Assembly (NCBI GenBank): GCA_963921275.4 | Contig: OZ001293.3 | Span: 672,001-736,000 of the forward strand | Source: an uncultured Hormoscilla sp. | Lineage (GTDB): Bacteria > Cyanobacteriota > Cyanobacteriia > Cyanobacteriales > Desertifilaceae | Direction: 5' to 3' | DNA length: 64,000 bases | Part shown: in pieces, positions 2,417-56,027 of the stretch | How the letters are laid out: every line of letters begins with the position of its first letter | Numbering within the stretch: the first letter of the stretch is position 1 | Made by a program: the position numbers and the translations under genes | Notes under the pieces: generated by a model | Told to the model about the DNA's origin: nothing | The model's database searches: none | Seen by the model: only the letters and a program-made list of their open reading frames with translations

Positions 2417-3623
2417 AAGAACTACCGTGCGATTCGTTCAGGCGTAAGCCGAAAATGGTGAAAGTCTGACTGGTTTCATTCGCCAGAAACTCTGGTCATC
2501 ATGAGGGTTAAATTCCCCCTCCCCAAGTACGGGGGTAACACCGGTCCTAAGTGCTACGGAGTCACATCGCCGTGGTGCGAAGCAAGGACTAAAATGTAGG
2601 ATAGCTGGCAGCCTAAGCCAGTGACGCAGCATGGCTGCGCCACGCTGCGCGATAGGAAAGATGCTCATGGTTAGAATAAGCGAACCTATGTAAACCTCGT
2701 CAATACCAACCAGCGGAATAAGGCTTATACGCTGGCCCAAAAGGGAAATGGTAGTTAGTGCTGGTTGTATTTACTGGCTAGCATCGTGCTCGAAGAACTC
2801 CCGGGGGATAGTAGGAACCTAAAAGCATCGTGAAATGATACCAGGGAACGAAGTAACCTCTTGTGAGCTGTCCTCATTTGGACAAGTCAGATGTAAAGCG
2901 CAAGCCACGAGGGGAGGGATGTCCTAAGAAAGCCAAAGCCTGGGGTAATGCCTAGGATATGCAGACGTAGAACGGATATGGTAAGAAGTTCTAAAAGAAA
3001 GTAGCCCTTAAATGTACTAAACCAGGAGCAATCCTAGGGAGTAATGGTGGATTAACGGTTCATCGACTGACCATAAAAGGCAAAATTTCATGGGACGAGG
3101 GACAAAGGGGGTAACCCAGAGTAATCCTACTGATGACAACAGCTTACCAACCAGTAGCCGGGTGCGGTTCCAGTCGCAAGCCCGGTTCCGAAAGGGAGGG
3201 TTGAAAAGTGATTTTCAGCTCGACCCCAGCCAAAGAGCGGTTTTGTGGTTTACTGGTTCACCCCCGCAAACCTTCCAGAGTTAGGTAGTTAACGGCTCCA
3301 CGACTGACCATAAGGGGCAAAATTTCATAGGACGAGGGACAAAGGGGGGTAACCCAGAGTAATCCTACTAATGACAACAGCTCACCAACCAGTAGCCGGG
3401 TGCGGTTCCAGTCGCAAGCCCGGTTCCGAAAGGGAGGGTTGGGGAGTGATTCCTAGCTCGACCCCGGCCAGATGAAAAGACACTACTTGAAATCCTGGAA
3501 ATGGCTCTGGCAGCTGAACAAAAAGCTAGAGAAATGAGTGAGTTTGCAACTGTGATCGCGTCAAAATATCAAAAACGGATGTCGGAAATCAGACAAGCAA
3601 GGAAACAAGGCGTAACTGAGTAG
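2413..3623 (+). CDS. Small hypothetical gene split by a group II intron (exons 2413-2426 and 3470-3623)
   Basis: Joining ATGAAAGAACTACC to AGATGAAAAG.. gives MKELPDEKTLLEILEMALAAEQKAREMSEFATVIASKYQKRMSEIRQARKQGVTE*. Confidence 0.7.
2427..3469 (+). mobile_element. ORF-less group II intron with two tandem DV/DVI 3' ends (3231 and 3469); collapsed twintron
   Basis: 5' GTGCGATTCG; two copies of AGCCGGGTGCGG..CGCAAGCCCGGTTCC DV, each followed by DVI ending CTCGACCCCRGCC. Confidence 0.85.
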
Positions 3624-3739
3624 ATAGGCCATAACAACAGATAACAGGCTGTACTACCTCCTGTCATCATCTTCTGCTTATTTACTCTTACCTAATGAAA
3701 CGATCTGCTAAAGGAACCATGTGAGGAGCAATAGCGTGA

Positions 3740-4108
3740 TTATACGTAAGAGCGAATATCTTCACCGCATTCATCGGCTAGAAAGCAGAGGGCGCGAAAC
3801 CGCAAACCGACCAATTGCTCGTAAAGAGGATTGAGCTTACACAGGGGTGGAATGTGGAATAAAGTACGTCCAAACAGTTTGATATCTCGTTCAAAGGGAC
3901 ATTGCGCTGGAATCAGTCTGGAGAGCAACCGCGCTGTGAAGACCTCATGAATTCGCCAACCATCCAGCCATGCCCGCGCAGGGCGAAGTAAATCGAAAGA
4001 GCGCGATCGCCCCTTAGCTGGGTTTATACATTCCCCAGGCTCATTTAGACTACTTTGATTGTCTTGTTCGATCCCAAACATAAGTTGAAAATTTGATGAG
4101 TTTGCCAT
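3740..4108 (-). CDS. Mo-dependent nitrogenase C-terminal-like domain protein
   Basis: IPAQCPFERDIKLFGRTLFHIPPLCKLNPLYEQLVGLRFRALCFLADECGED signature. Confidence 0.85.
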   Translation of the reverse strand: MANSSNFQLMFGIEQDNQSSLNEPGECINPAKGRSRSFDLLRPARAWLDGWRIHEVFTARLLSRLIPAQCPFERDIKLFGRTLFHIPPLCKLNPLYEQLVGLRFRALCFLADECGEDIRSYV

Positions 4109-4810
4109 CTCTTTATTGTTTTGATTTTGACTCTGTATCCTTCTCTATATCAAGATTCAGAATCAAACCCATTGTTCCGGACAAAGACAAATGGACGACT
4201 CCTGGTCAAGTTTCAGTAAATTTCCAGAAGCTATGACCAGACAAAGAGCAGTCGATCGCCATCTGTCCTAGAACTTTCGGTGTCTCCTGGGAGCTCGATG
4301 TCCCCCCAGAGGGGGACGCTTGATGTCTCCCGAGAGCGCTGCACAAAAGGGGAGACATCATAACCGCACTACCCCCGAGACATCGTAGTCGCACAACGGG
4401 GACCAGACACCGAGTCGTACTTGTTCGAGTCACCAGGCATTAATTGCTTGAGGCTCTTTCCCTAGCTTCAAACTCTCAGGGGGTTATGAACCAGAAACTT
4501 TACACTTATTTATTAATTGCAACGGTTCATAACAGTTTGTAAAGATTTGGTAAATTAAATTAAATGTAACGTAGATCACAAGTTGACCCTGGGGCCGCTC
4601 CCAAGGCTCAAGGAGCGCCACATCCCGAAGAGAAAAATATGAGAACAAGATTAAATCTAGTAAAGCTGGAGAGAACCGGTGAATCAGAATTGGTCAGAGT
4701 TTCACCAGTCTTATCAGAGTTGCCTCTGTTAAACCGGTGTGCCGTAGCCTCTGCTACGCTTTAGGGATAATGCCATCAGAGGTCCAATCAACTGCCAGAG
4801 AGATATAGCC

Positions 4811-9118: not shown

Positions 9119-9415
9119 ATGCAGCAACTATCTGAAGCCAAGCAGGAAATTATCACCCGCATATCCCCGATTGTCGCCAAACTGATTCAAAGTAATAGTC
9201 TATTTGAAGAACTAGAGCAAGATAAAATGATCGAAATCATCTCCGAGGCGTTAGAGAAGCATTTTTCACTAGCATAAATCAGAGCCATGCCTGATGACGA
9301 CCTGACAGATAGAATTGATGGTGTGCTGGGGATACAAGTGTTGTATTATCTGTTAAGTGATTTCACCCCAGAGCAAATGGCAGAGTTCGAAGCCGCAATA
9401 CCGAAGCGGAAGTAG
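9119..9415 (+). pseudogene. Probable antitoxin of the downstream VapC, with internal TAA at 9275-9277
   Basis: Frame open on both sides of the stop, ending LSDFTPEQMAEFEAAIPKRK immediately upstream of the PIN gene. Confidence 0.6.
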
Positions 9416-9419
9416 TCAA

Positions 9420-9836
9420 ATGAGTTATCTTCTCGATACTAATATAGCCACCGCGATGTTAAAACAAGATGAAAGGTTAAACAGCAAATTAATACAGGTG
9501 CGGATTCGGAAACAACAACTGTATATTAGCTGTATGACATACTATGAGGTAAAAGGAGAACTGTTGGCTGTAAATGCGACAAGGAAGCTGTCTATATTTG
9601 AGCAGTTGTGTATTGACATATTTCAAATTTTGTTTTTGTCAAATCTAGAAATCATCAATAGAGCATCAGAGATATATGCCGAGTTAAGGCGCAGGGGGAC
9701 GCCTATCCAAACTGCTGATATATTGATAGCGGCTACCGCAGCAGCAGCAGGATTAATTCTGGTATCTCATGATTCTGATATGCTAAGGGTTTCAGCCGCG
9801 ACAGTAGAGGACTGGCTACAAATAGAAGGAAGATGA
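9420..9836 (+). CDS. vapC: VapC/PIN toxin
   Basis: MSYLLDTN, YYEV, ADILIAATA, LVSHDSD acidic residues retained. Confidence 0.88.
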   Translation: MSYLLDTNIATAMLKQDERLNSKLIQVRIRKQQLYISCMTYYEVKGELLAVNATRKLSIFEQLCIDIFQILFLSNLEIINRASEIYAELRRRGTPIQTADILIAATAAAAGLILVSHDSDMLRVSAATVEDWLQIEGR

Positions 9837-10279
9837 AAGAAGCATCAATGGTAGAAATGCAGGCAGTTGCTTCAGAAATTACCACTCAGCTTCCCGATAT
9901 CAAACTGTTGGTTTTGTTTGGTTCGAGAGCTACAGGTAAAGTCCATCCAGGAAGTGACTGGGATTTTGCGGTTCTCTACGACCAAGAATTGCTTCGTGCT
10001 AGAATGAAAAATTATTGGTATTGGTTGGAGATCGATCGCCTCCTGACTCAGATGTTACCATCAATTCCCATGGCAAAGATTGATGTAGCTGAACTGAATC
10101 ACTGTTCTCCGCTACTTGGCTATCAAGTGGCGCGTAATGGTAAGCTGCTGTACGAAAAGCATCCAGGAGAGTTTATTAAGTTTCAATGCTTGGCTGCGAA
10201 AATTTATGCAGATACAGCTAAATTCCGCCAAGCTCAATGGGAAGCTCTTAAATTAGCTTTGCGGAGGTGGGGAGTATGA
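9833..10279 (+). CDS. mntA: Minimal nucleotidyltransferase antitoxin (MNT, type VII TA)
   Basis: LFGSRATG..SDWDFAV motif; precedes HEPN gene. Confidence 0.85.
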   Translation: MKEASMVEMQAVASEITTQLPDIKLLVLFGSRATGKVHPGSDWDFAVLYDQELLRARMKNYWYWLEIDRLLTQMLPSIPMAKIDVAELNHCSPLLGYQVARNGKLLYEKHPGEFIKFQCLAAKIYADTAKFRQAQWEALKLALRRWGV

Positions 10280-10601: not shown

Positions 10602-12596
<1,995 letters not shown>

Positions 12597-14667: not shown

Positions 14668-14746
14668 AATTACCGCCTCTGTAAATCTATAGCAATGATT
14701 CCTTTGCGTGTATTGGTCCTACTATCGATTAAACTAAGCCAGGGAG

Positions 14747-17305
<2,559 letters not shown>

Positions 17306-21206: not shown

Positions 21207-22151
21207 CGAATCATTCGTAGTCATAGCGTCGGGGTTGACCTGGTAAGGATGGAAGGGGGATTTTGGTTTCACTTACTAACTGCTTACTTGTCTCGTCAAA
21301 ACAAACCACTGGATAATTTGGCTCGCCAAGGCACGAGTATAAAGGCTTAACACATCTTCCATATGGTAAACAAACTCGGCATTTTATTTAGGTGGAATTA
21401 CTCAACACTCCTGTAACCAAGGCTTTAGTTCATTTTTTTTTAAGGTTTGACCCACGGTTTCATGGGAAATACTCTCGACATACCCCAACTCAACCATGGG
21501 ATCTGCCAACAGCCTCAATGTCCATAAACCTTCGGTGTCTCCTGGGTAGTGCTTAAGGCGCTCCTAGGAGACACCGCGGCCTTCGGGAGGTTCTCCACAG
21601 GCCAGGGCAATTAAGTGAGCTTCTTGTTCCCCATCTAGTAAACGAGGTTTGGTACGAGTGGGCGATTGACGGGACAACGCCGCTAATAGACCTTCTTCTA
21701 CAAAACGCTTAGCTTATCGTTCAATGGTCGAAACGCTGATATCTAAAGCTTTATTAATCTCCAAGTCACTCCAACCTCCGGCTTCATTGTTAATATCAGC
21801 TTTTAGCAGAATTCGAGCATGGTTTACCTTGTAAGCGGCTGTTTTACCTCTCTTAGTCAGCCTTTCTAGGGCTTCCCATTCCTCCGTAGTTAGAGCAACA
21901 ACGTATTTTTTCTTAGGCATAATTCATAATTACCAGTGACATATGCCTTCTATTCTAGCTCAATCTATCCATCAATTCAAAAATGACAGACCACTAGTAA
22001 AAGTTGTAGCAAATCTCTCGTTAAATTACTCCCATTCGCAAAAATGAATTCTTGGTGGTAGATTGCCGTTTTCATCTAATTCTGGTATCACTACTTCACA
22101 CCTGCGCCATTTGCCTTTAACTGACTTTACTCATTAACCTTTCAACTCAAT

Positions 22152-22480
22152 ACCATTATACTGCATTAATCCCCTGCTTGTGCGAGCGCCCACACCTCGG
22201 CACTGTCAATTCTAGCATGTTACCCAACCAAGAGCTACATTTTAGTTTGGTTTCCTTCCGTCTACCCCACAGAAGGACTACATTAGCCCGGCCCTATACC
22301 ATTATACAGCAGAAACCGCCTGTCCATACTTCCAAGTGCGATCTCCCACACCTCGGCACTGTCAATTGTAGCACCTTACCCAACCAATAGCTACATTTTC
22401 GTTAAGTTTCGTGAAGTCTAGCCCACAGAAGGACTAAATTAGCGGGATTCCATTATACTGCATCAATCCCCTGTCCATAG
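22152..22480. repeat. Tandem ~140-bp degenerate repeat units (CATTATAC..CACACCTCGGCACTGTCAAT..CCCACAGAAGGACTA)
   Basis: Units repeated here and again at 25923-26300. Confidence 0.7.
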
Positions 22481-22789
22481 GGGTATGGTAAAAACCAGTT
22501 GGGTTTTGAAAAGTTCGGGGGGCCACGCGATCGCGCCCCACCCTCGCGACTATACCAAAAATTTTTCACTAATTATACCCCTGATCGCTCTTTTTTTTCT
22601 TACCTGCGCGAGTGCCATTATACTGTCTCAATTCCTGTTATTTTGCAATTAAAACTCCCGAATTCATACCAGATAATGCTTTCAAATTTTTCTGAAACTT
22701 TTTTTTAATTTTTTGGCCAAAATCCTTGACAATGACAAAATAAATCTGCTATCTTAAAAAAGTGAATTTGAAATAAATATAGAACTCCA

Positions 22790-22990
22790 ATGTCAAATAC
22801 GCAAACATCAACTAACCGCGAAAAGCACTCTGTAAAAATCATCATTGTTGGCGTACCCAAGGCTGTGATACGCGCGATTAATATTCTGCATGTGCTCAAA
22901 TTTGCTAAGGCCGGTGACTGGCTATAAGTTAAGCGGACTCTGGTTCCTGAAGAACTGATGATGGTCATCACTCTCGACTTTATGCTGTAA
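22790..22990 (+). pseudogene. Small cyanobacterial hypothetical protein with internal stop
   Basis: KIIIVGVPKAVIRAINILHVLKFAKAGDW* resembles a known small-protein family; upstream TTGACA..TATCTT, downstream GC hairpin. Confidence 0.45.
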
Positions 22991-23499
22991 ACCCCACGGC
23001 CCCCTTAGGGGGGCTATTTATAACTGCTAATCGCCGGTTAATTGCTGGCCAAAATCGGGCATTTGGAGACTCTTTTTCTAACCGGTTGCTTGGCGCGGCA
23101 AATATTTTATAGCGCGCGGATATGGCAGGCGATCTGGTTTCATTTCTGCTGATAAAAAAGCCCGGTTTCTACGTAGAAACCGGGCTTTTTTATCTTTTGG
23201 AGACTTATCTTGGTTATTGGTATGCAATTCGCGATCGCATTCGGAACGGACAGGACATTTGCCCGATCGCATTTTCTGGGCAGGATATTCGCGGGAGCAT
23301 ACGGACGGTATATTTGCGCGATCGCACGGACATAATATGGGAGATGCAGATGTTTTAGAGGTACCGGAGTTACTGCCGGGGTAGGAATTATCTGTTGTTA
23401 ATGTGTGTGTACCAGAGTTTGAATAAAAAGAGCGATCCTGTTGCGCAAAAGTATGCTAAGCTATTGGAGTGGGAGTAAAAGTGCGACTGGAGGAAAAAG

Positions 23500-24165
23500 A
23501 TGATACAAGCAGTTAGCGAGGAAGAAAGCATTTTAGAACAAGCAAACCTTAAGCCCTCAACAGCAGCAGTCCGTTCTGGTAATAATTTAGTTTTTGCAGA
23601 GTCAAAATCAAAAGATAGAATATCCGACTGTTGAGGATAAACCGATATCTGCTTATGAAGCGGCTAAACAGTGGGTAGGATGTGTCGATAGTGGCATTGG
23701 CGATCTGTCTTATAACAAAAAGTATCTTCAGGAATATTCAGCACCATGAAATCAAGAGTGATTGTAGATGCCAGTCCAGTGGTGGCGCTTATCGATAAAA
23801 GCGATCGCTTTCACCATTGGACAACAGAAATTTGGAAAACCCTTGCGATCCACTTGTTTACCTGTGAAGCAGTTATTTCAGAGACATGTTTTTTGCTGCA
23901 AAGAACTTATGGCGGACAGGATGGGGTAATTGATTTACTGAAAAGGGTATCCAAATTTAATTTAGCTTGAGTGAAGAGTTGGAAGCAGTTGGAAACTTGA
24001 TGCGAAAATACGAATCTGTGCCCATGGGGTTTTGCAGATGCTTGTTTGGTGCGAATGAGTGAGTCGAACGCAGGCAGTACTGTGTTAACATTAGATAGGG
24101 ATTTTCGCATTTACCGGAAAAATCGGACTGACCCGATCGATGTGATTATTCCATCCGAGTTATAA
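23500..24165 (+). pseudogene. Antitoxin (DUF2281-like) plus PIN toxin pair, both broken
   Basis: VGCVDSGIGDLSYNKKYL; VIVDASPVVALIDKSD; ADACLVRMSE..VLTLDRDFRIYR. Confidence 0.75.
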
Positions 24166-24236
24166 ATTATTGTGCGACCTATCGAAAGTATGCTAAGCTA
24201 TTGGAGTGGGAGTAAGAGTGTAACTGGAGGAAAAAG

Positions 24237-24518
24237 ATGATACAAGCAGTTAGCAAGGAACAAAGTATTTTAGAAAGCCTGCAAACCTTAACCCCTCAAC
24301 AGCAGCAGTCCGTTCTGGTAATAATTGAATTTTTGCAGTTGAAGACGCAAAAGCCGGAAATTCAGGAAACTGTAGAAAATGAGGACGAAGTTATTTCGAT
24401 GCTGGAAGCAGCAAAGGAGTTTGTCGGTTGTTTAGATAGCGGCCTAGGCGATCTGTCTATGAAAAAACAGGAGCTAAAGAAAGGATATAAGGCGATACGA
24501 TCGGAAAAGTTATCCTAG
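24237..24518 (+). CDS. DUF2281-like antitoxin (second tandem copy)
   Basis: LQTLTPQQQQSVL..FL; VGCLDSGLGDLS; same upstream sequence as the first copy. Confidence 0.65.
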   Translation: MIQAVSKEQSILESLQTLTPQQQQSVLVIIEFLQLKTQKPEIQETVENEDEVISMLEAAKEFVGCLDSGLGDLSMKKQELKKGYKAIRSEKLS

Positions 24519-24966
24519 ATACAGGACCCTGGCTAGCGGTTTTAGATAAAAGCGATCGCTACCATGATTGGGCAGTAAATCAATGGGGAAATATTACCAA
24601 ACCGGTGTTTCCGTGCGAAGCTGTTATTAGTGAGGCGTGTTTTGTCCTGAAAAATGTTTATGGGGGTGACGATGCAGTCATGGGTTTAGTGAGCGGTGTC
24701 TCCTCGGTAGTGCGAGTAGCGCTCCCAGGAGACACCGCGTCGAGGTTATATTGAGGTTCTTTTTCGTTTCAGCGATGAAGTGACTGTAGTGAGAGAGTTG
24801 ATGCCAAAATACAAATCTGTTCCCATGGGGTTTTGCAGATGCCTGTTTGGTGCGAATGAGTGAGTCGATCGCAGGCAGTACCGTGTTAACATTAGATCGG
24901 GATTTTCGCATTTACCAGAAAAATCGGACTGATGCGATCAATGTGATTATTCCATCGGAGTTATAA
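24490..24966 (+). pseudogene. PIN toxin (second copy) disrupted by a palindrome insertion
   Basis: VILDTGPWLAVLDKSD..; insertion 24694-24737; C-terminus near-identical to the first copy. Confidence 0.7.
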
Positions 24967-25295
24967 CCGAAATGAATAATACAATGTAAAAAAATAATGC
25001 TACAATTACTTCAACGTTATATTATTAGTCAGTTAAAACCGACTTTAGCTGTTAGCCGGGGGTTTGAACCCCCGGCGGGCTGACAGCGAAGTGAGAGAAC
25101 TTTCGCATCTAATTGTAGCTTTTCTCAGATAGATGAGGTACAGTGAATTACAGACATCACAAGGGTGGCATTGCACAATAACGGGATGATAAGCCTATTT
25201 GCAAAAGCTTGAAACATAGACTATAAGCCACTTTCAGCTATGTGCAAAAAAAGGTATCATCCCCCGTGCAACTCCTTTCTCCTCTTAAGGGATGA

Positions 25296-25691
25296 TTACT
25301 TAGCGATCGCCGAAACTTTTAGCGCCGCATTTGCTGGCATTGCTCTACCCAAGGGTTCTAGTTGTGATACGATCGGATCGAAGGCACAGTAGCAAACTAC
25401 AATTTCTCGCTTGGAACTATCAGGATAATTAGGGAAATATCTTTCCACGCGCGTAACAATCCAGTCTCCATCCCGAACATGAGTAGAACTGTCTGGAAAT
25501 CTCTCCGAAGCAAATTCCGCAATGTGTAAAAATTGCCGTAACCGATCGCCTACTTGAGGAATACTTCCCTTTTCAGTATAATCCAACTGTTCATCGAGGA
25601 TATCTGTTAATCCTCCCATAGGTAACTTGCGATTTTACCATCCAGGTTGTTCGGGTTCGGCATGAAAAATGATCCAGGTTTCACTGTTCAT
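25296..25691 (-). pseudogene. Cyanobacterial hypothetical protein with internal stop
   Basis: MNSETWIIFHAEPEQPGW*NRKLPMGGLTDIL.. in one frame. Confidence 0.55.
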
Positions 25692-25922
25692 GATAATTAT
25701 CCTCCATAAAACTTGTTTGTTCTCCTGCAAAGATACATTCTACTTTAAGAATGGGATCCCTTGTCCGTTCGACTCGAATTAGTTTTCATATGTTTAGTTG
25801 TGCCATTTTTTTGCATTGTTCGCGCATTGTTGCCGCGTGACGGTTTTCCCCTTTTTTCATTGACATAAGTTTATAGATATACTATCGCAAGGCATGCCCT
25901 GCGGGCGCTACGCTTTTACGTA

Positions 25923-26300
25923 TGGGTTTCCTTCTGTCTACCCCACAGAAGGACTACATTAGCCCGGCCCAATATCATTATACAGCATCAATCCCATCCG
26001 ATACTCCCAGGTGTGATCGGCCACACATCGGCACAGTCAATGTAGGTTGGGTTGAGGCACGAAACCCAACATTGAAGTATATTTATGTGGGGTTTCCTTC
26101 CGTCTACCCCACAGAAGGACTACATTAGCCCGGCCCAATAGCATTATACAGCATCAATCCCCTGTCCATACTACCTTGTGCGATCGGCCACACATCGGCA
26201 CTGTCATTGTGTCATTGGTCATTGTAGGTTGGATTGAGGCACGAAACCCAACAAAGAGCTACATTTTGGTTGGGTTTCCTTACGTCAACCCAACCTACGA
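25923..26300. repeat. BIME-like mosaic of ~140-bp units with REP palindromes GTAGGTTGGGTTGAGGCACGAAACCCAAC
   Basis: Direct inspection. Confidence 0.7.
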
Positions 26301-26331
26301 ATCGATCGCACTCATCAGGCGATCGCACTTC

Positions 26332-26676
26332 TCAGGTCAGGACGTTCTGAATCACGTTATCATCGACTACCAGGCTACTCGTGCCATCAGTGTAAGTGGT
26401 GAAACCGTCAGCGCTGTTAGAGCTGAAACCAGGCAAGTTGGCATTCACGGCATTCTCAGCAGTTCCCAGCACTGTTAAGCTGTTTTCCGAATCAGAGATA
26501 TTTTGCAAATCGCTGACTTCCAAGGTTAAGCTATTGCCCCCACCATTCAGGTCTAGGATCTCAATACCCCGGATGCGGGTATCGTCAATGGCGGTCAAGT
26601 CCAGATTAAACGTTCCATCTAGGCGCAGGGTATCTTCTCCACTACCGCCGATAATTTGGTCCAATAGTCCGGACAC
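26332..26676 (-). pseudogene. C-terminal fragment of a secreted RTX/Ca-binding protein
   Basis: GGSGEDTLRLDG..LDLT..IEILDLNGGGNSLTL. Confidence 0.65.
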
Positions 26677-27063
26677 TTTTGAGAAGAATTTTTATAATTC
26701 ACTATGTAACATATACAGTAATACCCCCCTGTTGTAGACAGCCAGTTGAAAAGGGAGTTTGTCTCCAAGCTATCCACCCTGTAGAGTGTCGTAGTAAACC
26801 AAATCTAAGAAGCACTCCTGGGATAATCTCGGAGAGTCTTTTCGCCTCACTGCTGGAAACAGCAGGCCATTTCTACAAACCCCCTTGCCAGTTTCTTGAC
26901 CATTGATAACCACCATTTTCGTGGCCATTAGGCATTGTCAACTACACTCTCCCCCTCTTCGGTACAGCCACTTGTCAACCTAGCGCAGCGCTCCGGAGCT
27001 TGTTGCGAGGCACGAAGCAATCTGCCGCTACGCTCCGGGGGCGCAGCCATGGGTACCTATCGC

Positions 27064-27867
27064 CGATGTCTCCTGTGTGCCGTCCATGTCCCCTGGGACA
27101 AGAGAACAAGCCGTATGGACCCTGGGACAAGAGCAAGGAGCAGAGATATCGAAAAGTAAGAAGTGCATCGGACCACAGAAAAGAAGGGGATGACGATGTC
27201 TCCTGTGTGCCGTCCGCGTATCGCGTATCCCGTAGCGTGGCCCAGCCATGGGTGGCCCAGCCATGGACCCTGGGACAAGAGCAAGGAGCAGAGATATCTT
27301 CGTCGCGGCTACAGGCTACGCTGGTAAGGTCGATAAAACCTTCCCCAGTCGCTTTCAGTTCCTTAAGACCCCCATTGGACGGCGTCGATGTCTCCTGTGT
27401 GCCGATAGCGCTGCGCTGGGGGCGCAGCCATGGACCCTGGGACAAGAGCAAGGAGCAGAGATATCGAACAGCTTTATACAGCGGTGGTGTGGTCTGTGAG
27501 GATCCGATGTCTCCTGTGTGCCGTTCGCGTATCGCGTATCCCGTAGCGCGTATCGCGTATCCCGTAGCGCGTATCGCGTATCCCGTAGCGTGGCCCAGCC
27601 ATGGGTGGCGCAGCCATGGGTGGCGCAGCCATGGACCCTGGGACAAGAGCAAGGAGCAGAGATATCGAAGGCAGCGCTGCGCGCACTGCGCCCTTGTTCT
27701 TTCTTGAATTCATTTTCCGCGCAGGGGCGTCAGTTTACTGGGCTTGCCCTAGGAACGGCACCCTCACGACTAAGCAGGAGATTCCCATGTCGATGTCTCC
27801 TGTGTGCCGTATCCCTTGCGGGAGCGCAGCCATGGACCCTGGGACAAGAACAAGGAGCAGAGATATC
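27064..27867 (+). repeat. Array of five co-oriented modular elements CGATGTCTCCTGTGTGCCG-[variable]-CCCTGGGACAAGA..GCAGAGATATC
   Basis: Units 27064-27150, 27194-27298, 27386-27465, 27505-27666, 27791-27867 separated by unique DNA; solo copy at 31177-31231 (-). Confidence 0.88.
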
Positions 27868-30880: not shown

Positions 30881-31273
30881 TGGCGTTTCCTCGAATCCTA
30901 TCTTTTATCATAACTAATAGCCAGCACCATTGTCAAGGTAATTCACAAAAATATCTTTCGATGTCTTCGGGATGCTTCGCAAAAACCCCGAAGACATCGC
31001 TGACACATATGGGATCGCATCTGGTCGGCGCACAAATCTTAAACATTACTGGTTCCCACTGGCGACCCTTGGGAACGCAAACCAGAGGCTCTGCCTCCAG
31101 GAGCGAAAGCTGTAATCAACTGGAGGCAGAGCCTCGAAAATTAGCGTAGCGTGTTCCCAGCCAGAGACTGGGAACTTCGATATCTCTGCCAGAGTTCTTG
31201 TTCCAGGGGACTCGGCACACAGGAGACATCGAGGTAACCTACAGATGGTTTGAACTGCCGAATGATTACAAAC

Positions 31274-32857
31274 CTAATCGCCAATGATAGGCGATCGCAT
31301 GAACAAAGTCGAAGTATCCTGGAAAGCCACAGAAGTATTTGGCATCAGAGTCGGGACCGAGTTTCGCAACCGGGCCGTCAACTGCACCGTTGTAGCATCG
31401 TACAGCTGGGTAACCATTTTAGGATACAAACCAATCCCAATAATTGGCACCAACAAACAAGCAATAATGAATACTTCACGCGGTTCAGCATCTATCAGCG
31501 CTTCATGTTCAACTAACTCCTTGTTTTCCGGTCCGTAGCAGATCTCCCGGATCATAGATAGCAAGTAGATCGGAGTCAAGATCACGCCTACAGCGGCCAG
31601 GAAGACCACCACCACCTTAAAGGTTGAACTGTAGGCATCGCTAGTAGAAAAGCCGAGAAACACCATGACCTCGGCCACAAACCCACTCATTCCCGGCAAT
31701 GCCAAAGATGCCATAGAACAAGCAGTCCACATAGCGAAAACCTTGCGCATCTTCTGGCCGACGCCCCCCATTTCATCTAACATCAGAGTATGCGTGCGAT
31801 CGTAAGTAGAACCCACTAGGAAGAACAAACTCGCCCCAATCAAACCGTGGGAAATCATTTGCATCACCGCACCGCTTAACCCTAGGTCAGTAAAAGAGGC
31901 AATGCCAATCAAAACAAAACCCATGTGGGAAATCGAAGAATAGGCAATTTTCCGCTTCAGGTTACGCTGGGCAAAGGAAGTCAGGGCAGCATAAACAATA
32001 TTAACCACCCCCAGAATTACCAAGGCCGGGGCGAAGAAAGCATGGGCATCGGGCAGCATACCAGCGTTCATCCGAATTAGGGCATATCCCCCCATTTTCA
32101 GCAGAATCCCAGCAAGTAACATATGCACTGGGGCAGTAGCTTCCCCGTGGGCATCGGGAAGCCAAGTATGGAAGGGAATAATCGGCAACTTGACAGCGTA
32201 GGCAATGAAGAACCCAGCATATAACAATAGTTGGAAATTCAGCGCGTATTCCTTAGCCGCGATCGCCCTCATATCAAAGGTAACAGTATCGCCATAGAAA
32301 GCCATTGCCAAAGCAGCCAGCAAAATAAACAGAGACGCCCCAGCAGTGTAGAGAATAAACTTAGTAGCCGCATACAGACGCTTTTTGCCTCCCCAAATTG
32401 CCAGCAGCATATAGACCGGAAGCAACTCCAGTTCCCAGGCCAGGAAGAACAACAGCATATCCTGGATAGCAAACACAGCGATTTGACCGCCGTACATAGC
32501 CAGCATCAAAAAGTAAAACAGCTTGGGCTTCATAGTCACTGGCCAGGATGCCAACATTGCCAGAGTAGTAATAAAGCCAGTCAGGATCACAAGGGGCATA
32601 GATAAGCCATCAACCCCCACAGACCAATTCAAATCTATCTGAGGCACCCAAGCATATTGTTCTACCAATTGCAAATCGGGATTATTCAAATCATACCCAG
32701 TGCAGAAGGCGTAAATAATGAAAGCAAAATCAATTAGCCCCACAGTTAGACCGTACCAGCGCACAGTCTTGCCGTCCTTATCTGGTATCAATGGTATCGG
32801 CAGCGAAGCGGCAATAGGAAACAGAATTATTGTTGTTAGCCAGGGAAAATTTGCCAT
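31274..32857 (-). CDS. ndhD1: NAD(P)H-quinone oxidoreductase subunit 4 (NdhD1)
   Basis: [28 protein letters not shown]; downstream of ndhF1. Confidence 0.96.
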
Positions 32858-32980
32858 TGTTAATTGCTAATTGCTAATTGTTCATGGTTCACTTGTAGGG
32901 TGAAATATCACTGACATTCGATGTAGGGTGGGCAGTGCTCACCTTCCCGCTAGATGTAGTGGGCACTGCCCACCTGACTG

Positions 32981-35119
32981 CTAGCTAATTCCTGAGACAA
33001 TTACTAAGCCTAGCACCGCCCCAAACACAATCAGGGCATAGAATTGGGCCCGACCATTCTCGAAATATTTCAGACCTTCGCCAGTGATAACTGCAATAAA
33101 ACCAGTCAGGTTGACTGCCCCATCCACGATCCGAAAGTCCACTTCCATCACCTGTCTGGCTAAGCGTCTAGACCCCTGAACGAAGAGGGCATCGTAGATA
33201 TCGTCAAAGTACCACTTGTTCAGAGATAGCTGATACAAAGACTGGATTGAATGGGCGATCGCCCCTGCATCAAGCTTCCGAGTCAGATACATCAGGGAAG
33301 CGACAGTAATGCCAATCAAGGCAATACCCACAGAAGATCCACCCATAAGCAGAAACTCAGACCATTCAAATTCAGCAGCAACTTCATGCAGTTCTGTCGC
33401 CACCTCACCTGGGGGATAAATAAATTCCTCAAAGAAGTTAGCAAAAGGCGTTCCCACCAAGCCAACCAACACCGAAGGAATTGCCAGAGTCATCAGTGGC
33501 AGAGTCATGCTCAGAGGCGACTCGTGAGGATGTTCCGCATGATGATGACGATCGCGATCGCGATCGTCATCATGTCCGTCGGGACTTTCCTGATGGACTT
33601 TCGGCATCCCCCGGGTAGCGCGTCCCCCTCTGGCCGCAACTTCTAGTTCTTTAACATCCATCGCCCCCGGACCAAAAACCGGTTCTACCATCTCCACCCC
33701 AGCAGCTAGCTGAAGTTGCTCTCTAATGGACAAATCATTGCCCCGGAATTCCCCTAAAAAGGTAGAGAAATACATCCGGAACATATAGAATGCAGTAATG
33801 CCAGCAGTCAGCCAGCCAACTACCCAGAGGGCGGGATTAGCTGTAAAAGCGCTACCGAGAATTTCATCTTTTGACCAAAAGCCAGCAAAGGGCGGAATCC
33901 CGCAAATTGCCAGAGTGCCTACCAAAAAGGTCAAGCCCGTAACTGGCATATACTTCTGTAGTCCTCCCATCAGCCGCATGTCCTGTGCCAGCACTGGCTC
34001 GTGACCGACCACCTCTTCCATGCCGTGAATCACTGAACCAGAACAGAGGAACAGCATCGCTTTGAAGTAAGCGTGAGTCATCAGGTGAAATAGACCAGCA
34101 CCATAGGCACCGATGCCCATTGCCATCACCATGTAACCCAGCTGGGAGATCGTCGAGTAAGCCAGACCTTTTTTAATGTCGTTTTGGGTAATGGCGATCG
34201 AGGCCCCCAAAAACGCCGTAAAAGCACCCGTCCAAGCAATCACCGTCATTGCCGTCGGGATCTGATCGAACACCGGGTACATCTGGGCAATCAGGAAGAC
34301 ACCAGCTGCCACCATTGTGGCCGCGTGGATCAAGGCCGAGATCGGGGTAGGACCTTCCATCGCGTCTGGCAGCCAGACATGCAGAGGGAATTGAGCCGAC
34401 TTCGCTACTGGCCCTAAAAAGACTAAAACTGCGAATAACGCGGCCAGTCCACCACTGATATAACCATCGGAGACCAACTCAGACAGTTTTGTCCCCATCA
34501 CCTCGAACTCAAAGCTGCCAGTAGCCCAGTAAAGTCCTAGCATACCCAGCAGCAGACCGAAGTCACCGACCCGGTTAACCACAAAAGCTTTCTGGCAAGC
34601 ATCAGCAGCTAGCTTGCGATCGTACCAGAACCCGATCAGCAGGTAGGAACACATACCTACCAGTTCCCAGAATATATATACCTGCACCAGGTTAGGACTG
34701 ACCACCAGACCCAACATCGAAGAACTAAACAGGCTCAGATATGCATAGAAGCGGACATAACCAGGGTCGTGAGCCATGTAGCCATCAGTGTAGATCATCA
34801 CCAGAAAGGCCACCGTGGTCACAATCACCAGCATCAGGGAAGTTAGCTGGTCGATCGTATAGCCCATCTGCAGGTGAAAATCACCCGCCTTTGCCCATTC
34901 TAGAGAGAAGGTATAGGCTGAATGTCCCTGAATTTGACTCCAAAGCAGAGCAAATGATAAAGCCATCGATGCGCCCAAGAGGGAAACCACAAAGATGGCG
35001 TTCAGCTGCCGCAGCTTGTTAGTCTCATGGTTTAAGGATATTAGGCCCAAGCCGACCAGCATCGCACCTGCCAAGGGCAGGACTGGTATCAACCAGGCAT
35101 ATTGATAGAGCAGTTCCAT
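32981..35119 (-). CDS. ndhF1: NAD(P)H-quinone oxidoreductase subunit 5 (NdhF1)
   Basis: KSAQFPLHVWLPDAMEGPTP, GFWSKDEIL. Confidence 0.96.
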   Translation of the reverse strand: MELLYQYAWLIPVLPLAGAMLVGLGLISLNHETNKLRQLNAIFVVSLLGASMALSFALLWSQIQGHSAYTFSLEWAKAGDFHLQMGYTIDQLTSLMLVIVTTVAFLVMIYTDGYMAHDPGYVRFYAYLSLFSSSMLGLVVSPNLVQVYIFWELVGMCSYLLIGFWYDRKLAADACQKAFVVNRVGDFGLLLGMLGLYWATGSFEFEVMGTKLSELVSDGYISGGLAALFAVLVFLGPVAKSAQFPLHVWLPDAMEGPTPISALIHAATMVAAGVFLIAQMYPVFDQIPTAMTVIAWTGAFTAFLGASIAITQNDIKKGLAYSTISQLGYMVMAMGIGAYGAGLFHLMTHAYFKAMLFLCSGSVIHGMEEVVGHEPVLAQDMRLMGGLQKYMPVTGLTFLVGTLAICGIPPFAGFWSKDEILGSAFTANPALWVVGWLTAGITAFYMFRMYFSTFLGEFRGNDLSIREQLQLAAGVEMVEPVFGPGAMDVKELEVAARGGRATRGMPKVHQESPDGHDDDRDRDRHHHAEHPHESPLSMTLPLMTLAIPSVLVGLVGTPFANFFEEFIYPPGEVATELHEVAAEFEWSEFLLMGGSSVGIALIGITVASLMYLTRKLDAGAIAHSIQSLYQLSLNKWYFDDIYDALFVQGSRRLARQVMEVDFRIVDGAVNLTGFIAVITGEGLKYFENGRAQFYALIVFGAVLGLVIVSGIS

Positions 35120-51249: not shown

Positions 51250-51276
51250 ATTTTGAAAAAAAATTTGCTTTAGGGG

Positions 51277-51305: not shown

Positions 51306-51306
51306 A

Positions 51307-52393
51307 AGAACCGTGTGGTGCGAATCGTTTTGGCGTAAGTCTGAAATATGGCGATCGCCGGGCTGGTTAATACCAGCAACTCTGGTCATCATGGGGGTTC
51401 AATTCCCCTTCCCCCAGGTACGGGGGTGACACCGGTCCTCGGTGCTGCGGAGTAACATTACCGTGGTGCCTCCCGAGGACAAATGTAGGATAAGGTCTCA
51501 GCCCAGAGACCGACGCCGCTAGGAAAGAGGCTCATGGTTAGAGCAAGCGAATCCCTGTAAGCATCGTCATCTTAAACAAGCGAAAAGAGGCTGACACGCT
51601 TGGTGCAAAATGCGCACGCAGTCCGCGTATCAGTGGTTGCACGTCACTGATATCGTACCCGAAATGACTGCCGGTGTATAGGGGAGACCTAAAAGCCTCG
51701 TGAAATGATACCAGGGAACGTTCCGGACAAGAGCGGTGCTGTCCAGATGGACAAGTCAGATGTGCGTCCGCGTAGCGTGCGCGCAGCGCCTAGCGCATGC
51801 CCGCGTGGGGAGGGAGGTCCTAAGAAGCTAATGCCCGGGGTAATGCCTGTGGATATGCAGACGTAGGACGGATATGGTAAAAAGCTCTAGGAGATAGTAG
51901 CCCTCTAAACGTGCTTAACCAGTGGCAACACTAGGTAGTAATGATGGACTTAAATCCTAACCGGGTAAAAATTTAGAGGCCCCATACGGGCACCTGTTAG
52001 TAAAGAACGGTCATAGTGGTTTTCTAGTTCCCCCCCGTAAACCTTCCGGAGTTAGGTACTCAACTAGTTCATGACTGACCATAAAGGGGCTATATTTCAT
52101 AGGGCAAGGGACAACGGGAGTAATCCCTAGTAATCCTACCCGTGACAAGGGTTTACCAACCAGTAGCCGTGTGCGGTGAAAGTCGCTCTTCAGGTTCCGA
52201 ATGGGAGGATTGTCCCGCGAGGGACAGCTCGACCCCGACCAGGAGCGAACCAGTGAGGGCACCGAGACGAAACACGGCCAGTCGTCGGTGCCCTTTCTGA
52301 TCTAAAACATCTCCACCACCGCATCCATTGAGCAGTTATCAGTGAGCAGTGACCACGTACCATGCCGAGTGACCACTTATTAGCATAGTTTCT
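51307..52393 (+). ncRNA. ssrS: Probable 6S RNA split by a group II intron (exons ~51307-51317 and 52241-~52393)
   Basis: Spliced form AGAACCGTGTG|AGGAGCGAACCAGT..AGGGCACCGA/TCGGTGCCCT stem..CTAAAACATCT..GAGCAGTTATCAGT..CATAGTTTCT; termini can pair; motifs recalled from cyanobacterial 6S RNAs. Confidence 0.7.
51318..52240 (+). mobile_element. ORF-less group II intron (923 nt)
   Basis: 5' GTGCGAATCG; EBS1 TGCACG (51638-51643) pairs with exon CGTGTG; DV/DVI ending CTCGACCCCGACC. Confidence 0.9.
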
Positions 52394-52483
52394 GGCGAGC
52401 AATATTTATATTGCTAATAATATCATGTTATCTATTGACAATTGTAAATTCGCAATTGACAATTTGGCATTTATGACATATTG

Positions 52484-52873
52484 GTGCGACTCGTTTAGTG
52501 TAGTGCGATTCGTTCTAGTCTAACGTGGGCAACTACGGAACGCTAGGCCAGGTCCAAACTGGTAACTCTGGTATTCATGGGGGTTAGATTCCCTCTCTCC
52601 AAGTGTGGGAGTAACACCGGTCCTTAGTGCTGCTGAGTCACATCACGGTGGTGCGGAGCAAGGACTTAAATGTAGGATAGCTAGCAGCCTAAGCTAGTGA
52701 CGCCGCTAGGAAAGATGCTAATGGCTAGAACAAGCGAACCTGTGTACGCCTCGTTATCTAGAACCAGCGAAATAAGGCTTAAAGCGCTGGCCCAAAAGGG
52801 AAATGGTAGTTTGTGCTGGTTCTTGCACTTGGCCAGTATCGCACTCTAAGAACTCCCGGGGTATAGCAGGGGC
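52484..52873 (+). mobile_element. Twintron 5' remnant: first 19 nt of an RT-lineage intron, then the truncated 5' part (52503-52873) of the ORF-less intron
   Basis: GTGCGACTCGTTTAGTGTA|GTGCGATTCGTTCTAG; matches the reverse complement of the 5' part of 15011-15844. Confidence 0.85.
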
Positions 52874-54354
52874 TCAGTTCGGGGCTTTTGCCTAATCTTG
52901 TGCTCCAATATGTGAGGTTCCCGTCGTATGGGCTTGCGGTCCCTTTCACTTTTACGTGTCTGATTATCTCAGTTTCGGAGTGTTTACGTATCTTCATATC
53001 ACCCTCTTTTGTCTTGCTTCGGAATCGCCATTTAGCATCCTGGTTTACAGACCAGTATTTATAGGTTATCCAGTTACTTGACTTGTTAGGGTGCCTCCTT
53101 TTGGCCCATTGCCATAGGATGTTCCATAGGTAGTTGTCCATATCGCTGTAAATTTCCTTGCTTACCACTGTCCTAAAGTAGTTTGACCATCCCCTTATTA
53201 TCGGGTTTAGCCTGCTTATTAGGGCCGCTTGTGGTGCTGTTATATGGCTAGTTACCATTTCTGATAACCGTTCTTTATGCTTCCCTATGGACTTATTACT
53301 GGGTTTGATTAGGGTTTTGAATCCTAGGGGTGTTCCGTTTGTTGATTTGCCGGTTCTGTATTTTCCCTCTTTATATTGCCTTATGTTAAATCCTAGGAAG
53401 TCGAATCCCGGGTTTTCTCCATTTAGCCTGTGGGCTATCTTTGTCTTTTCGGGCCTTCAACTCAAGCCCTATTCTTCTTAGCCACTCTGCCACCACTGTT
53501 TGCGCTCTGTCTATCATCTCCCTGTCTTCATGCATGATCACAAAGTCGTCTGCGTATCTGACTACCGTCAGCTTTCGCTTTTCCCTTTGTGTCTTTGCTA
53601 ATTCCATTACTGCTTCCTCTAACCCCTGTAGGGCTATATTGGCTAGCAGTGGGGATATGACACCCCCTTGTGGCGTTCCTGCCTCAGTTGTGTGCCATAT
53701 CTTCTTGTCAATCACCCCGGCTTTTAACCATGCCCGTACTTGTTTACGGATTGGTGACGTAGTATTTAATTTTTCGACTAGCGCTTTGTGGTCTATCCTG
53801 TCGAAACATTTCGCAATATCTGCATCTAATACCCATTTGGGTTTCTGTTTAATGCTGCTGAATATTGCCGCAATTGCATCGTGGCATCCCCGACCCGGTC
53901 TGAATCCGTATGAGTTCCCCTCCATATATGCTTCCCATTCGGGTTCAAGCGCAATCTTGAGGAGCCCTTGATTCGCGCGGTCGTGCATCGTGGGTATTCC
54001 TAAAGGACGTTTTTCTTCTCTCCCTGGCTTAGGAATCCATACACGACGTGTAGGCTTAGCCTTGTTTGAGATTTCAATCTGTCCTACCAGTTCTCGGCGT
54101 TGCTTTGGGGTTAGTGATTTCACACCATCCACACCGGCTGTCTTCTTTCCCTGGTTATCTTGTGTAACCCGTCGTACCGCTAGACATTTGGCAGCCCGGG
54201 AGCTTACCAGTAACCTTTGGAGCCTGCGAACTTTTTGCTTATTGCCTTCTTGTGCCGCTCTGTAAATTCGTTTTTGCAACTTAAAGACTACCCGTTCCAG
54301 CCGAGGCCAGGGGATATCCTTCCATTCATTCATCGATTTTGACATCGTGCTCAT
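52872..54354 (-). pseudogene. ltrA: Intron RT/maturase, frameshifted near 53455 and truncated
   Basis: TPQGGVISPLL, RYADD, NPIIRGW, YWSTRLGKSPEL. Confidence 0.9.
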
Positions 54355-54973
54355 GACGTATGTATTGCTACTTACAACTTTACAATTGACGTTACCGTGA
54401 GGGCGTCAGCATATCCCATCCATTACAGAAAGGCGTTAGCTTCTCCGCGAAATCTTTCCCAGATATAACCTGCCGAATGTAAGCAGATGTTGCGCCTTTG
54501 GTGGCTGCTCAACCTATCGACCGGTGGTTGAGAGTATGTACCTGGTTTACTTCGTTCCTCTAGATGATTGGTCGTAGTTTTAGGTGGATTCCTTATGCCG
54601 GGTTTATTGTCGGTGCTTATTGGTCAGAATTCAAACCGCCAATGACCATTATCCTTTCCCTTTTGGGCCAGCGTGTTTAGCCTTATTACGCTGGTTTGTC
54701 GTAACGACACTGTAAATCTTTGCTTTCGCTCACCGTGACTACTTGCACGCTGCGCGAAAAATCGGCGATGACCGGTTTAGGCTACCAGCCAGGGCGCCTT
54801 TCGTACCCGCTTCACGGATTGATGCCATCGCTACCGTGGGGTAAGTGCTGTCACTCCTGCACCTGGAGGGGTGGGCTTTCACCACCATCATCTAAAAGTT
54901 ATCAAGGCTAATGGAGCCTTGCCAGTGGTCCCCCTTCGGTTATCACCGGTGGTTTACACTGAACGAGTCGCAC
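52872..54973 (-). mobile_element. RT-type group II intron truncated at its 3' end (no HNH, DV or DVI)
   Basis: 5' GTGCGACTCGTTCAGTG at 54973; homologous to 14728-17892. Confidence 0.88.
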
Positions 54974-55048
54974 TAAAACGCCGACATTTTAACTTCTCTG
55001 TGCTGGGAAGCCGTAAAGTGTGTCTTACTACGAACGACTGACCCTCTA

Positions 55049-56027
55049 TAGTGAGTCTGTGCGATTCGTTCTAGCCTAACGTGGTCAAACACGGAACGCT
55101 AGCCCGGTTTCATTAGCCGGGAACTCTGACCGCATGGGGGTTAAATTCCCCTCCCCCCAGGTACGGGGGTGACACCGGTCCTCGGTGCTACGAAGCGACA
55201 TCATCGTGGTGCTAAGCGAGGACTCAAATGTAGGATAACTGGCAGCCTAAGCCGGTGACGCCGCTAGGAAAGATATCCAAGGTTAGAGCAGGCAAACATG
55301 TGCAAGCCTCGTTATAAGGAACCAGCGAAATAAGGCTATATGCGCTGGCCTAAAAAGGAAATGGTAGCTAGTATTAGTTTTAGACTCTGGCTAATATAGT
55401 ACTCAAATAGCTCCCGGGGTATAGTGTGGACCTAAAGGTATCGCGAAATGTTGTTAGGGAACGAAGTAACCTCTCGTGTGCTGTCCATCAGGACAAGTTA
55501 GATGTTAAGCGCAAGCCACGGGGGGAGGGATGGCCCAAGAAGCGAATGCCCGGGGTAATTCCTGGGATAACATCTACAGTAATGTAGATGATGCTGGGTA
55601 GCCAGCGCTGACGTGGGTCGGTGATACTAGGAAGCTGCTGGAATGAGTAATCCTAAAAAGCCACGGAACTAATCCGAAACGCAAGTGGAGGATAAGGTAT
55701 GGATAACTGGTAAAACTGACTTGAAAATGGTGATACTAACGGTTATCAGAACAACCACTCGCTAAACCAGGAAAGGGAAGAAAAGACAGGCGGCAAGGGC
55801 TAACGGAAGTAATTCCTATTAAGTCTACCTATGAAAAGGGCCTAGTACCCAGTAGCCGGATGCGGTGAAAATCGCAAGTCCGGTTCCTCAAGGGAGGGTC
55901 GGGAAGCGATTCCCGGCTCGACCCCATCCAAATCATTTGTGTAAATATTCTGGTAAATCAGCGCCCAAACCCTTGCGGGGCAAGTATTTCAGCAAACACA
56001 GATTGCACAACTAATTTAGGCTAGCTA
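55049..56027. mobile_element. IS630-type MITE (108 bp without intron) with a group II intron in its left TIR
   Basis: TAGTGAGTCT|AAATCATTTGTG vs CACAACTAATTTAGGCTAGCTA; TA flanks; TIR resembles the IS630 at 10602. Confidence 0.8.
55059..55929 (+). mobile_element. ORF-less group II intron (871 nt)
   Basis: GTGCGATTCG; EBS1 AGACTC (55382-55387) pairs perfectly with GAGTCT; canonical DV; end CTCGACCCCATCC. Confidence 0.92.

Follow-up and report, generated by a model that had tools for sequence, protein, structure and literature searches.

Group II introns without open reading frames in a Hormoscilla genome: guide–target covariation, precise insertion and probable mobilisation in trans

Group II introns that lack an open reading frame (ORF) and share a protein supplied in trans are the standard model for the origin of spliceosomal introns and of their common splicing machinery. 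Several related ORF-less introns lie in a 64,000-nt stretch of a Hormoscilla genome (contig C1, positions 672001-736000; hereafter the window), and they raise the question of how a lineage that encodes no protein could have spread to sites that differ from copy to copy and yet match the guide sequences carried by each copy. Here this lineage is referred to as S-type, and a different intron type in the same window, which bears a reverse transcriptase (RT), as L-type. Our analyses support, with a probability of about 0.85, the interpretation that S-type introns constitute one old, protein-less lineage of subgroup IIB that spread as RNA, targeted by its guides and helped in trans; mobilisation by RTs encoded elsewhere would best account for the sequences.

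Window introns and the targets that they match

Comparison of the window with itself, together with the junctions, alignments and coordinates, resolved the S-type elements into five full ORF-less group IIB introns and one 5' fragment (Table 1). The six related introns that a first-pass annotation had reported are all present and belong to one ORF-less lineage, although two of the positions given for them (11688 and 15011) mark 3' ends, the copies concerned lying on the minus strand, and a third (52503) belongs to the 371-nt fragment. All six begin with GTGCG (GUGCG in RNA). As had been noticed before, three of them are nearly identical: S2, S3 and S5 are mutually 99.5% identical, S5 corresponding to nt 1-371 of S2, and the remaining window copies are 70-80% alike. 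The description as ORF-less was upheld as well, since the window ORF list contains no sense ORF of at least 100 aa within any S-type copy, and no window copy carries in domain IV the intron-encoded RT/maturase ORF that is the criterion of autonomy. S1 holds one antisense frame of 100 aa, and frames of neighbouring RT genes extend a few bases into S3 and S5.

In five of the six window copies, exon-binding site 1 (EBS1) forms five or six of six pairs with the nucleotides immediately upstream of the intron, the exception being S1. The EBS1 and target pairs quoted earlier for the TGCACT, TGCACG and AGACTC variants were all correct, and the broader statement that each variant matches its own target holds for these five copies and fails for S1, which had been left out of the pairing list. 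The EBS1 loop, described as 9 nt long, spans 13 nt in the alignment of most copies, S4 alone having 9 nt; in the genome alignment it is a hypervariable loop within a conserved hairpin. The first base of the 3' exon (+1) is A in all five full window copies. Among genome copies, the EBS1 of S1 is carried by S1 alone, S4 is about 96% identical to other members of its TGCACG family, and many members of the AGACTC family, the largest, are 100% identical to S6. The site of S2 is unique, with no paralogue and no long ORF crossing the insertion point.

The EBS3-IBS3 pair (IBS, intron-binding site) that marks subgroup IIB is present in S-type introns, whose 41 family representatives range from 568 to 1004 nt. 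In folds of domains V and VI (DV, DVI) of these representatives, pairing in the distal DVI stem is kept through GC, UA, AU and CG changes. Three of the five full window copies reach the gathering score (40 bits) of RF00029, the Rfam DV-DVI model, namely S2 and S3 (47 bits each) and S6 (44.4 bits); S1, at 30.5 bits, stays under it, and S5 has no 3' end.

Table 1. Introns and intron fragments of the window, with the guides of S-type copies and their pairing to the adjoining target
Element	Position	Strand	Length	EBS2	EBS1	EBS3	6 nt upstream	EBS1 pairs	EBS2 pairs	Remarks
S1	2427-3231	+	805 nt	ATACC 2703-2707	ATTTAC 2769-2774	T 2809	ACTACC	1/6	2/5	full
Fragment behind S1	3232-3470	+	239 nt							3'-terminal part of a second S-type intron (part of DIV, DV, DVI), directly behind S1
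S2	11688-12522	-	835 nt	TCTAG 12264-12268	TGCACT 12196-12201	12161	AGGGTA	5/6	1/5	full; TGCACT family
L1	14728-17892	-								RT-bearing, S3 inside; 5' GTGCG at 17892, 3' TTTAAT at 14728
S3	15011-15844	-	834 nt		TGCACT		AGTGCA	6/6	2/5	full; TGCACT family
L2	20374-21206	-	833 nt							ORF-less derivative of L-type, not of S lineage
S4	51318-52240	+	923 nt	TCTTA 51570-51574	TGCACG 51638-51643	51679	CGTGTG	6/6, two G-U	5/5	full; TGCACG family
L-type 5' stub	52484-52502	+	19 nt							reads GTGCGACTCGTTTAGTGTA; target into which S5 inserted
S5	52503-52873	+	371 nt		TGCACT		AGTGTA	6/6, one G-U	3/5	5' fragment; TGCACT family; ends after EBS3, abuts truncated L3
L3	52874-54973	-								RT-bearing, 3'-truncated; 78% identical to L1
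S6	55059-55929	+	871 nt	TAAGG 55315-55319	AGACTC 55382-55387	55422	GAGTCT	6/6	4/5	full; AGACTC family

Covariation, precise insertion and spread across the genome

Searches (blastn) with four window copies matched 446 loci in the genome, and a motif scan located 375 S-type 5' ends, all but about nine of which start with GTGCG, a motif that the scan itself demanded with at most two mismatches. An S-type 3' motif follows within 1.1 kb in 331 of the 375, at 1.1-2 kb in 22 and at 2-4 kb in six, with none inside 4 kb in 16; the first group is taken as full ORF-less copies, the length limit being the selection criterion. These 331 copies comprise 287,907 nt, or 4.1% of the genome, and all lie on the large contig C1. 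The contigs C2-C7 (156 kb in total) hold none, against about seven expected from their length. The copies are split into 179 on the plus and 152 on the minus strand; a replication-strand bias was considered for this split and rejected, as no pattern appeared along the chromosome and the GC skew is weak.

A 6-nt EBS1 and sufficient flank were obtained for 346 of the 375 ends, 29 being dropped. They carry 52 different EBS1 hexamers, led by AGACTC (145 5' ends), TGCACT (79), TGCCTC (17) and CATCTA (9), and pair on average at 5.18 of 6 positions. With one representative per variant (n=52), EBS1 and IBS1 pair at 266 of 312 positions, whereas shuffled pairings average 137.8 (sd 8.2) and not one in 10000 comes up to 266; with the target window displaced by 1, 2, 3 or 6 nt, 130-137 pairs remain. 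EBS2 proved to be a second hypervariable stretch, 5 nt long within CGTYA[NNNNN]AAC, which pairs with target positions -13 to -9. At that offset 209 of 270 positions pair, compared with 74-114 at five others, and with one representative for each of 48 variants the count is 187/240 against a shuffle mean of 104.6 (sd 7.2), again equalled by none of 10000 shuffles. In 39 of 41 families the base in the alignment column of S2 nt 362, taken as EBS3, forms a pair with the +1 base that most copies have, through A:T in 26, T:A in seven, C:G in four and T:G in two. The covariation that the first-pass annotation had proposed to look for between EBS1 and IBS1 is therefore present genome-wide, and all three guides covary with their targets far beyond shuffled expectation. 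A hairpin loop reading AAATAAGGCTT, about 15 nt downstream of the true EBS2, was tried as EBS2 and discarded, being near-invariant across families and showing no covariation with the flank.

Insertion was precise. For 136 of the 331 copies the junction can be aligned with a paralogous site that lacks the intron (195 have none), and the gap in these empty sites ends exactly 4 nt after GCTCGACCCC, with identity stopping at the intron ends. This fixes the 3' end of the introns, which in S1 likewise falls 4 nt after GCTCGACCCC, and agrees with the ends annotated earlier at 11688, 15011 and 55929. The copies occupy 275 distinct flank contexts, 250 of them singletons and 25 of them clusters of 2-11 copies; the 138 full AGACTC copies are spread over 114 contexts and the 75 full TGCACT copies over 59. 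Because the empty paralogous sites are precise and the flanks largely unique, segmental duplication is excluded, and flanks betraying it, named in advance as the observation that would overturn the earlier proposal, were not the rule. In a wider form of the same explanation, the introns would have multiplied as DNA, whether segments were duplicated or larger blocks recombined, and each guide would fit its flank because both were inherited together. The 25 clusters, whose flanks are homologous on both sides, are what one would expect from it. The hosts of these clusters, however, are themselves repeats (RT-bearing introns and other elements) of which unfilled copies exist, 250 copies have flanks unlike those of any other copy, and 52 different guides each match different flanks. 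Multiplication as DNA is thus refuted as the main route and retains next to no probability.

Nesting in other mobile elements is a minority outcome. S-type copies lie within RT-bearing introns in 32 of 331 cases and within other S-type introns in 18 (50 nested copies in all), one small family being aimed at a conserved stretch of S-type domain I. The earlier assertion that the introns land mostly in other mobile elements did not survive the genome-wide count, as at most 136 of 331 copies lie in any repeated sequence, and of the window copies S3 and S5 alone are nested in other introns, no paralogous site existing for S1, S2, S4 or S6. S3 is nested in sense within the RT ORF of L1, between its maturase and HNH parts; its junction is spanned by 45 paralogous sites, and removing it in silico yields a sense frame of 436 codons. 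When the sequence of L3 is read against the L1 flanks, the S3 site is found to be kept empty there, at about 52900. Since S3 and S5 are 99.5% alike and L1 and L3 only 78%, the inner intron arrived after the outer introns had diverged.

These observations bear on the possibility that S-type introns owe their spread chiefly to the movement of host elements, either RT-bearing introns or insertion sequences, in which they are passengers. The nested copies are in its favour, as are two clusters, of 11 and nine copies, that each share one site in RT-bearing introns, and a three-deep nest at C1:1143255-1147413, in which an outer S-type intron holds an RT-bearing intron in its domain IV and this in turn holds a TGCACG-family S-type intron at about its nt 180. 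Against it stand the 195 copies without any paralogous site, the site of S3 left empty in L3, and the far closer likeness of S3 to S5 than of the adjoining L1 to L3, so that we regard passenger transport as a very unlikely main route. An RT-bearing intron also occupies the same S-type domain IV site near C1:6624041.

Under the preferred interpretation, spread as guide-directed RNA helped in trans, an S-type copy would be transcribed, fold into a ribozyme and splice. Its RNA would be bound by an RT-maturase-endonuclease from an RT-bearing intron elsewhere in the chromosome and would reverse-splice into DNA wherever its guides pair, the 5 nt of EBS2 with -13 to -9, the 6 nt of EBS1 with -6 to -1 and the single nucleotide of EBS3 with +1; a purine at -15 would also be needed, whatever guide the intron carries. 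Through target-primed reverse transcription the helper would then copy the inserted RNA into DNA, producing a precise insertion with no target duplication. New specificities would arise by changes of guide nucleotides and by recombination that swaps the guide-bearing block of domain I between families, and each could give rise to a burst, the AGACTC and TGCACT families probably being the two latest. The sequences show the anatomy, the three covariations, the precise insertions, the copy numbers, the unique flanks, the recent movement, the intact helper genes and the mosaics described below, whereas splicing, reverse splicing with target-primed reverse transcription, the dependence on a helper and the choice of helper are inferred.

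The introns moved recently, as had been supposed before: of the 138 full AGACTC copies, 61 share one sequence, and 1.24 differences per 871 nt (0.14% divergence) are found on average, the TGCACT family being similar. S6-like DNA was found in all four other species of the genus (best 91-93% identity) and in one of nine other genomes of the family, where the matches are short; beyond the family, the order yielded only short patches, mostly of the DV region. A pattern scan of named genomes gave at least nine loci, all in metagenome-assembled genomes of Hormoscilla sp. among the matches listed. As the closest DNA in the four congeners is only 91-93% identical, the AGACTC burst is younger than the species split. 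In one sequencing run, a contig over unique flank is covered to a depth of 61.8, as opposed to 9,326-9,504 for three contigs inside S6, a ratio of about 150 that may fit the 145 AGACTC ends, although depth is not copy number and the run may be of the source sample itself. Three further runs (X5, X6 and X7) hold S6-type sequence at 99-100% identity in other flanks; when compared with window positions 54000-57000, none of their contigs covers the unique flank to the right of S6 or bridges the S6 site.

RT-bearing introns as candidate helpers

If the lineage is helped in trans, proteins capable of helping should be encoded elsewhere. The genome contains 75 matches to the maturase domain GIIM and 83 frames of at least 150 aa with a YADD-type RT motif, 55 of which are under 500 aa and 23 at least 550 aa. 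Of these 23 (stop-to-stop) frames, 21 are 65-100% identical to one another, and all four long RT frames tested against Pfam hold RVT_N, RVT_1, GIIM and HNH. Thirteen RT-bearing introns have both ends, with lengths of 2.37-2.42 kb.

Both RT genes of the window itself are broken, as had been annotated. By Pfam, the two pieces of the L1 frame hold part of RVT_N (127 aa) and RVT_1 with GIIM (354 aa), S3 preceding the HNH part, and those of the frame of the truncated L3 hold RVT_N with RVT_1 (322 aa) and GIIM (159 aa). L2 is 84% identical to the 5' part of L1 and 94% to its 3' 99 nt, and it groups with the RT-bearing introns in the tree described below. Its sequence indicates that it arose by a separate loss of the ORF and, unlike S-type, has not spread, only one full-length relative, at 76% identity, being present elsewhere in the genome.

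The RNAs of the RT-bearing introns share with S-type the first 12 nt and little else, blastn aligning only patches of 42-359 nt. A tree was built from the 5' 560 and 3' 90 nt of each intron, one 568-nt S-type representative and one RT-bearing intron without a proper 3' end being omitted. It places 40 S-type representatives opposite 14 L-type rows (the 13 RT-bearing introns and L2) across a single branch with 100/100 support and about 1.4 changes per site. At this distance, any helper would need to work on an RNA very distant from that of its own intron. Two loci, C1:1145461 and C1:6624041, looked like S-type introns with an RT of their own and were rejected as such, since they are complete RT-bearing introns, with their own TTTAAT 3' ends, inside S-type domain IV. 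As the 100/100 branch splits the 40 S-type representatives from the 14 L-type rows and both apparent cases are lodged RT-bearing introns, no ORF-bearing sibling of S-type exists in the genome. The suggestion to look for an intact RT whose intron RNA is the closest relative of S-type was hence borne out in one half, in about 21 long RT-maturase-HNH frames, and failed in the other.

Several results weigh against spread as guide-directed RNA helped in trans. No RT-bearing intron in the genome has S-type RNA, and none of the listed sequencing runs with this DNA is recorded as RNA. The DV of S4 gives no RF00029 match at E <= 1, a failing shared by its whole family (eight copies, TGCACG/TGCATG), whose DV has two mismatches in the lower helix; yet the eight copies occupy eight different sites. 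Pairing is imperfect in places as well, the guides of S1 mismatching its own site at both EBS1 and EBS2 and IBS2 matching poorly in S2 and S3 (Table 1). Sites that score 12/12 for the AGACTC guides are unoccupied in 83 cases and occupied in three. As to coding context, 83 copies are sense and 62 antisense to a frame of at least 150 codons, and 186 lie in no such frame; the 62 antisense copies could not be spliced from the mRNA of the gene concerned.

Part of this list would be expected of a fossil swarm, that is, of introns that moved by the proposed mechanism and of which none is now mobile or spliced, for instance through loss of the matching helper. The lack of S-type RNA in any RT-bearing intron, the many well-matched sites left empty and the aberrant DV of the S4 family agree with it, as do the many broken RT genes, to judge from the 55 of 83 YADD-type frames under 500 aa. 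The identity of 61 AGACTC copies at a mean divergence of 0.14%, a burst younger than the split from congeners at 91-93%, and the survival of at least 13 complete RT-bearing introns, with full domain sets in all four tested intron-encoded proteins (IEPs), argue otherwise, and we consider a swarm that is wholly extinct unlikely.

Guide change, target rules and known systems

Guide specificity appears to have changed in two ways. The CATCTA and ATTTGC families differ at eight of 11 guide positions and by only 2.4% elsewhere, 29 of their 34 differences falling within nt 189-417. TGCCTC and TCTATC are 0.5% different in the guide block and 26.7% in the rest of the intron, whereas GCCATT and TGCTAC show the reverse, 33.7% in the block and 3.8% in the rest. 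Such contrasts identify these introns as mosaics, families having exchanged the guide-bearing part of domain I. Within the block shared by TGCCTC and TCTATC four of 11 guide positions still differ, which implies that the guides are also subject to focused point change. A dedicated mechanism that would hypermutate the guides, of the kind known from diversity-generating retroelements (DGRs), is not supported: EBS2 is kept in 143 of 145 AGACTC copies, and no altered EBS1 occurs in any family whose scaffold is within 2% of that of AGACTC or TGCACT.

Targets carry information at -13 to -9, -6 to -1 and +1, and additionally at -15. At this last position, A occurs in 70% of AGACTC and 68% of TGCACT sites, and among 99 sites of 39 other families 92% have a purine there. 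Because the preference is independent of the guide and the intron base facing it is not complementary, the purine is probably recognised by protein. Many sites scoring 12/12 are unoccupied (103 for the TGCACT guides), so that pairing alone does not explain the choice of site, although occupancy of AGACTC sites rises with the score, from 0.4% at 10 to 1.8% at 11 and about 3.5% at 12. Saturation of targets as the force driving retargeting was likewise rejected, given the 83 and 103 such sites still available to the two big families.

The closest known system is that of Thermosynechococcus elongatus (T. elongatus), with 28 introns in six EBS families, 17 of them ORF-less in four families, where driver IEPs mobilise the ORF-less introns, which also lodge in RT ORFs as twintrons (Mohr, Ghanem and Lambowitz 2010, PMC2882425). 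As described there for the group IIB1 introns TeI3 (ORF-less) and TeI4 (ORF-bearing), and as here, IIB introns without an ORF are more numerous than those with one, each family is set apart by an EBS1, EBS2 and EBS3 that match its sites and consists of identical or near-identical copies, some insertions lie in RT ORFs (twintrons) and repeats, and the helper IEPs have RT, maturase and endonuclease (En) domains. The mechanism is therefore already known, and what is new here is the scale, more than tenfold larger (331 full ORF-less copies and 52 EBS1 variants against 17 copies in four families), the deep split between helpers and dependants, and the mosaics. Identity between helper and ORF-less introns is 85-100% in T. 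elongatus (PMC2882425), whereas the S-type clade is deeply diverged from all RT-bearing intron RNAs of its genome, and the closely related ORF-bearing intron that serves the TeI3 type as source of a helper has no counterpart here, the two types being about 1.4 changes per site apart and sharing only short blastn patches. A purine at -15 is kept in all families here, in contrast to the minimal protein recognition reported for T. elongatus (PMC2882425), and guide-block mosaics do not figure in the relevant passages of that account.

Other systems share single features. EcI5 of Escherichia coli (CL/IIB1), as described where it is cited in PMC2882425, resembles S-type in IIB-type recognition by EBS1, EBS2 and EBS3 and has an IEP with En, but it is autonomous, with an ORF of its own. 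Introns within introns are known from the nested group II introns of Methanosarcina acetivorans (cited in PMC2882425) and from a Trichodesmium twintron (PMC4649490), as here, where such nesting concerns only 50 of 331 copies. The filamentous cyanobacterium Arthrospira platensis (about 6.8 Mb) has at least 150 group II introns, 71 with RT and 79 without (Fujisawa et al. 2010, PMC2853384), and its 101 group II introns in another count were the largest number among 1,790 bacterial genomes (Miura et al. 2022, PMC8919778). The 331 full ORF-less copies and 75 maturase matches of the present genome exceed both counts, an excess that is approximate because the methods differ; the relevant passages of both papers give counts, without an analysis of guides and targets.

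A fuller reading, which we hold tentatively and at somewhat less than even odds, is that S-type represents a long-lived, obligately helper-dependent clade with no ORF-bearing sibling left, which would retarget mainly by a natural swapping of cassettes between families, each cassette being a guide-bearing block of domain I some hundreds of nucleotides long, and in addition by point change of guides, and which would have reached a record load in a probably non-thermophilic symbiont. If true, it would be the highest published intron load found for a bacterium, and it would counter the idea that high temperature permits such proliferation, high temperature having been proposed as a key factor for high intron copy number (PMC2882425). 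A sponge-metagenome run that holds part of the stretch and the titles of Hormoscilla records hint at a non-thermophilic host. A literature search found no paper linking Hormoscilla to introns.

One genome thus provides filled sites next to empty ones, about 21 long frames that may encode helpers, 52 variants of EBS1 and 331 full ORF-less copies. The change of guides, the strictness of the protein's share in target choice, the relaxation of helper RNA specificity and the tolerance of a genome can consequently be counted on natural data, and the table of guides and targets could serve as a natural training set for the rules of retargeting IIB introns.

Some rearranged loci of the window deserve separate description. 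At 52484-52903 the L-type stub (+) is followed by nt 1-371 of S5 (+) and then by the truncated L3 on the other strand. The stub matches nt 1-19 of intact L-type introns, and its site is filled elsewhere and empty at two other places. An aborted insertion at an S3-type site was considered for the S5/L3 junction and rejected, as L3 runs about 27 nt past the empty site and S5 belongs to the separate stub; from its sequence, this breakpoint reads as a deletion or inversion joint between two nested-intron loci. The fragment directly behind S1 shares 91% identity with 3052-3232 over 3289-3470 and 77% with the 3' end of S4 over 3232-3471, and at 3391-3468 it reaches 28.4 bits with RF00029. An imperfect direct repeat of about 15 nt brackets the unit formed by S1 and this fragment, reading GATGAAAGAACTAC before it (2400-2426) and GATGAAAAGACACTAC after it (3471-3500), and the unit looks like a non-canonical insertion or a rearrangement rather than a product of retrohoming.

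Elsewhere in the window, several families of 60-240-nt direct repeats occupy 22148-27867, and a single match to CRISPR-DR28, just over its gathering score, lies at 30252-30275 (-), beside long minus-strand ORFs at 30326-35119. At 9357-10279 (+) a PIN-domain ORF overlaps a nucleotidyltransferase (Polbeta) ORF, a pair resembling toxin and antitoxin, and an ORF at 3740-4108 (-) carries a Mo-nitrogenase C-terminal domain.

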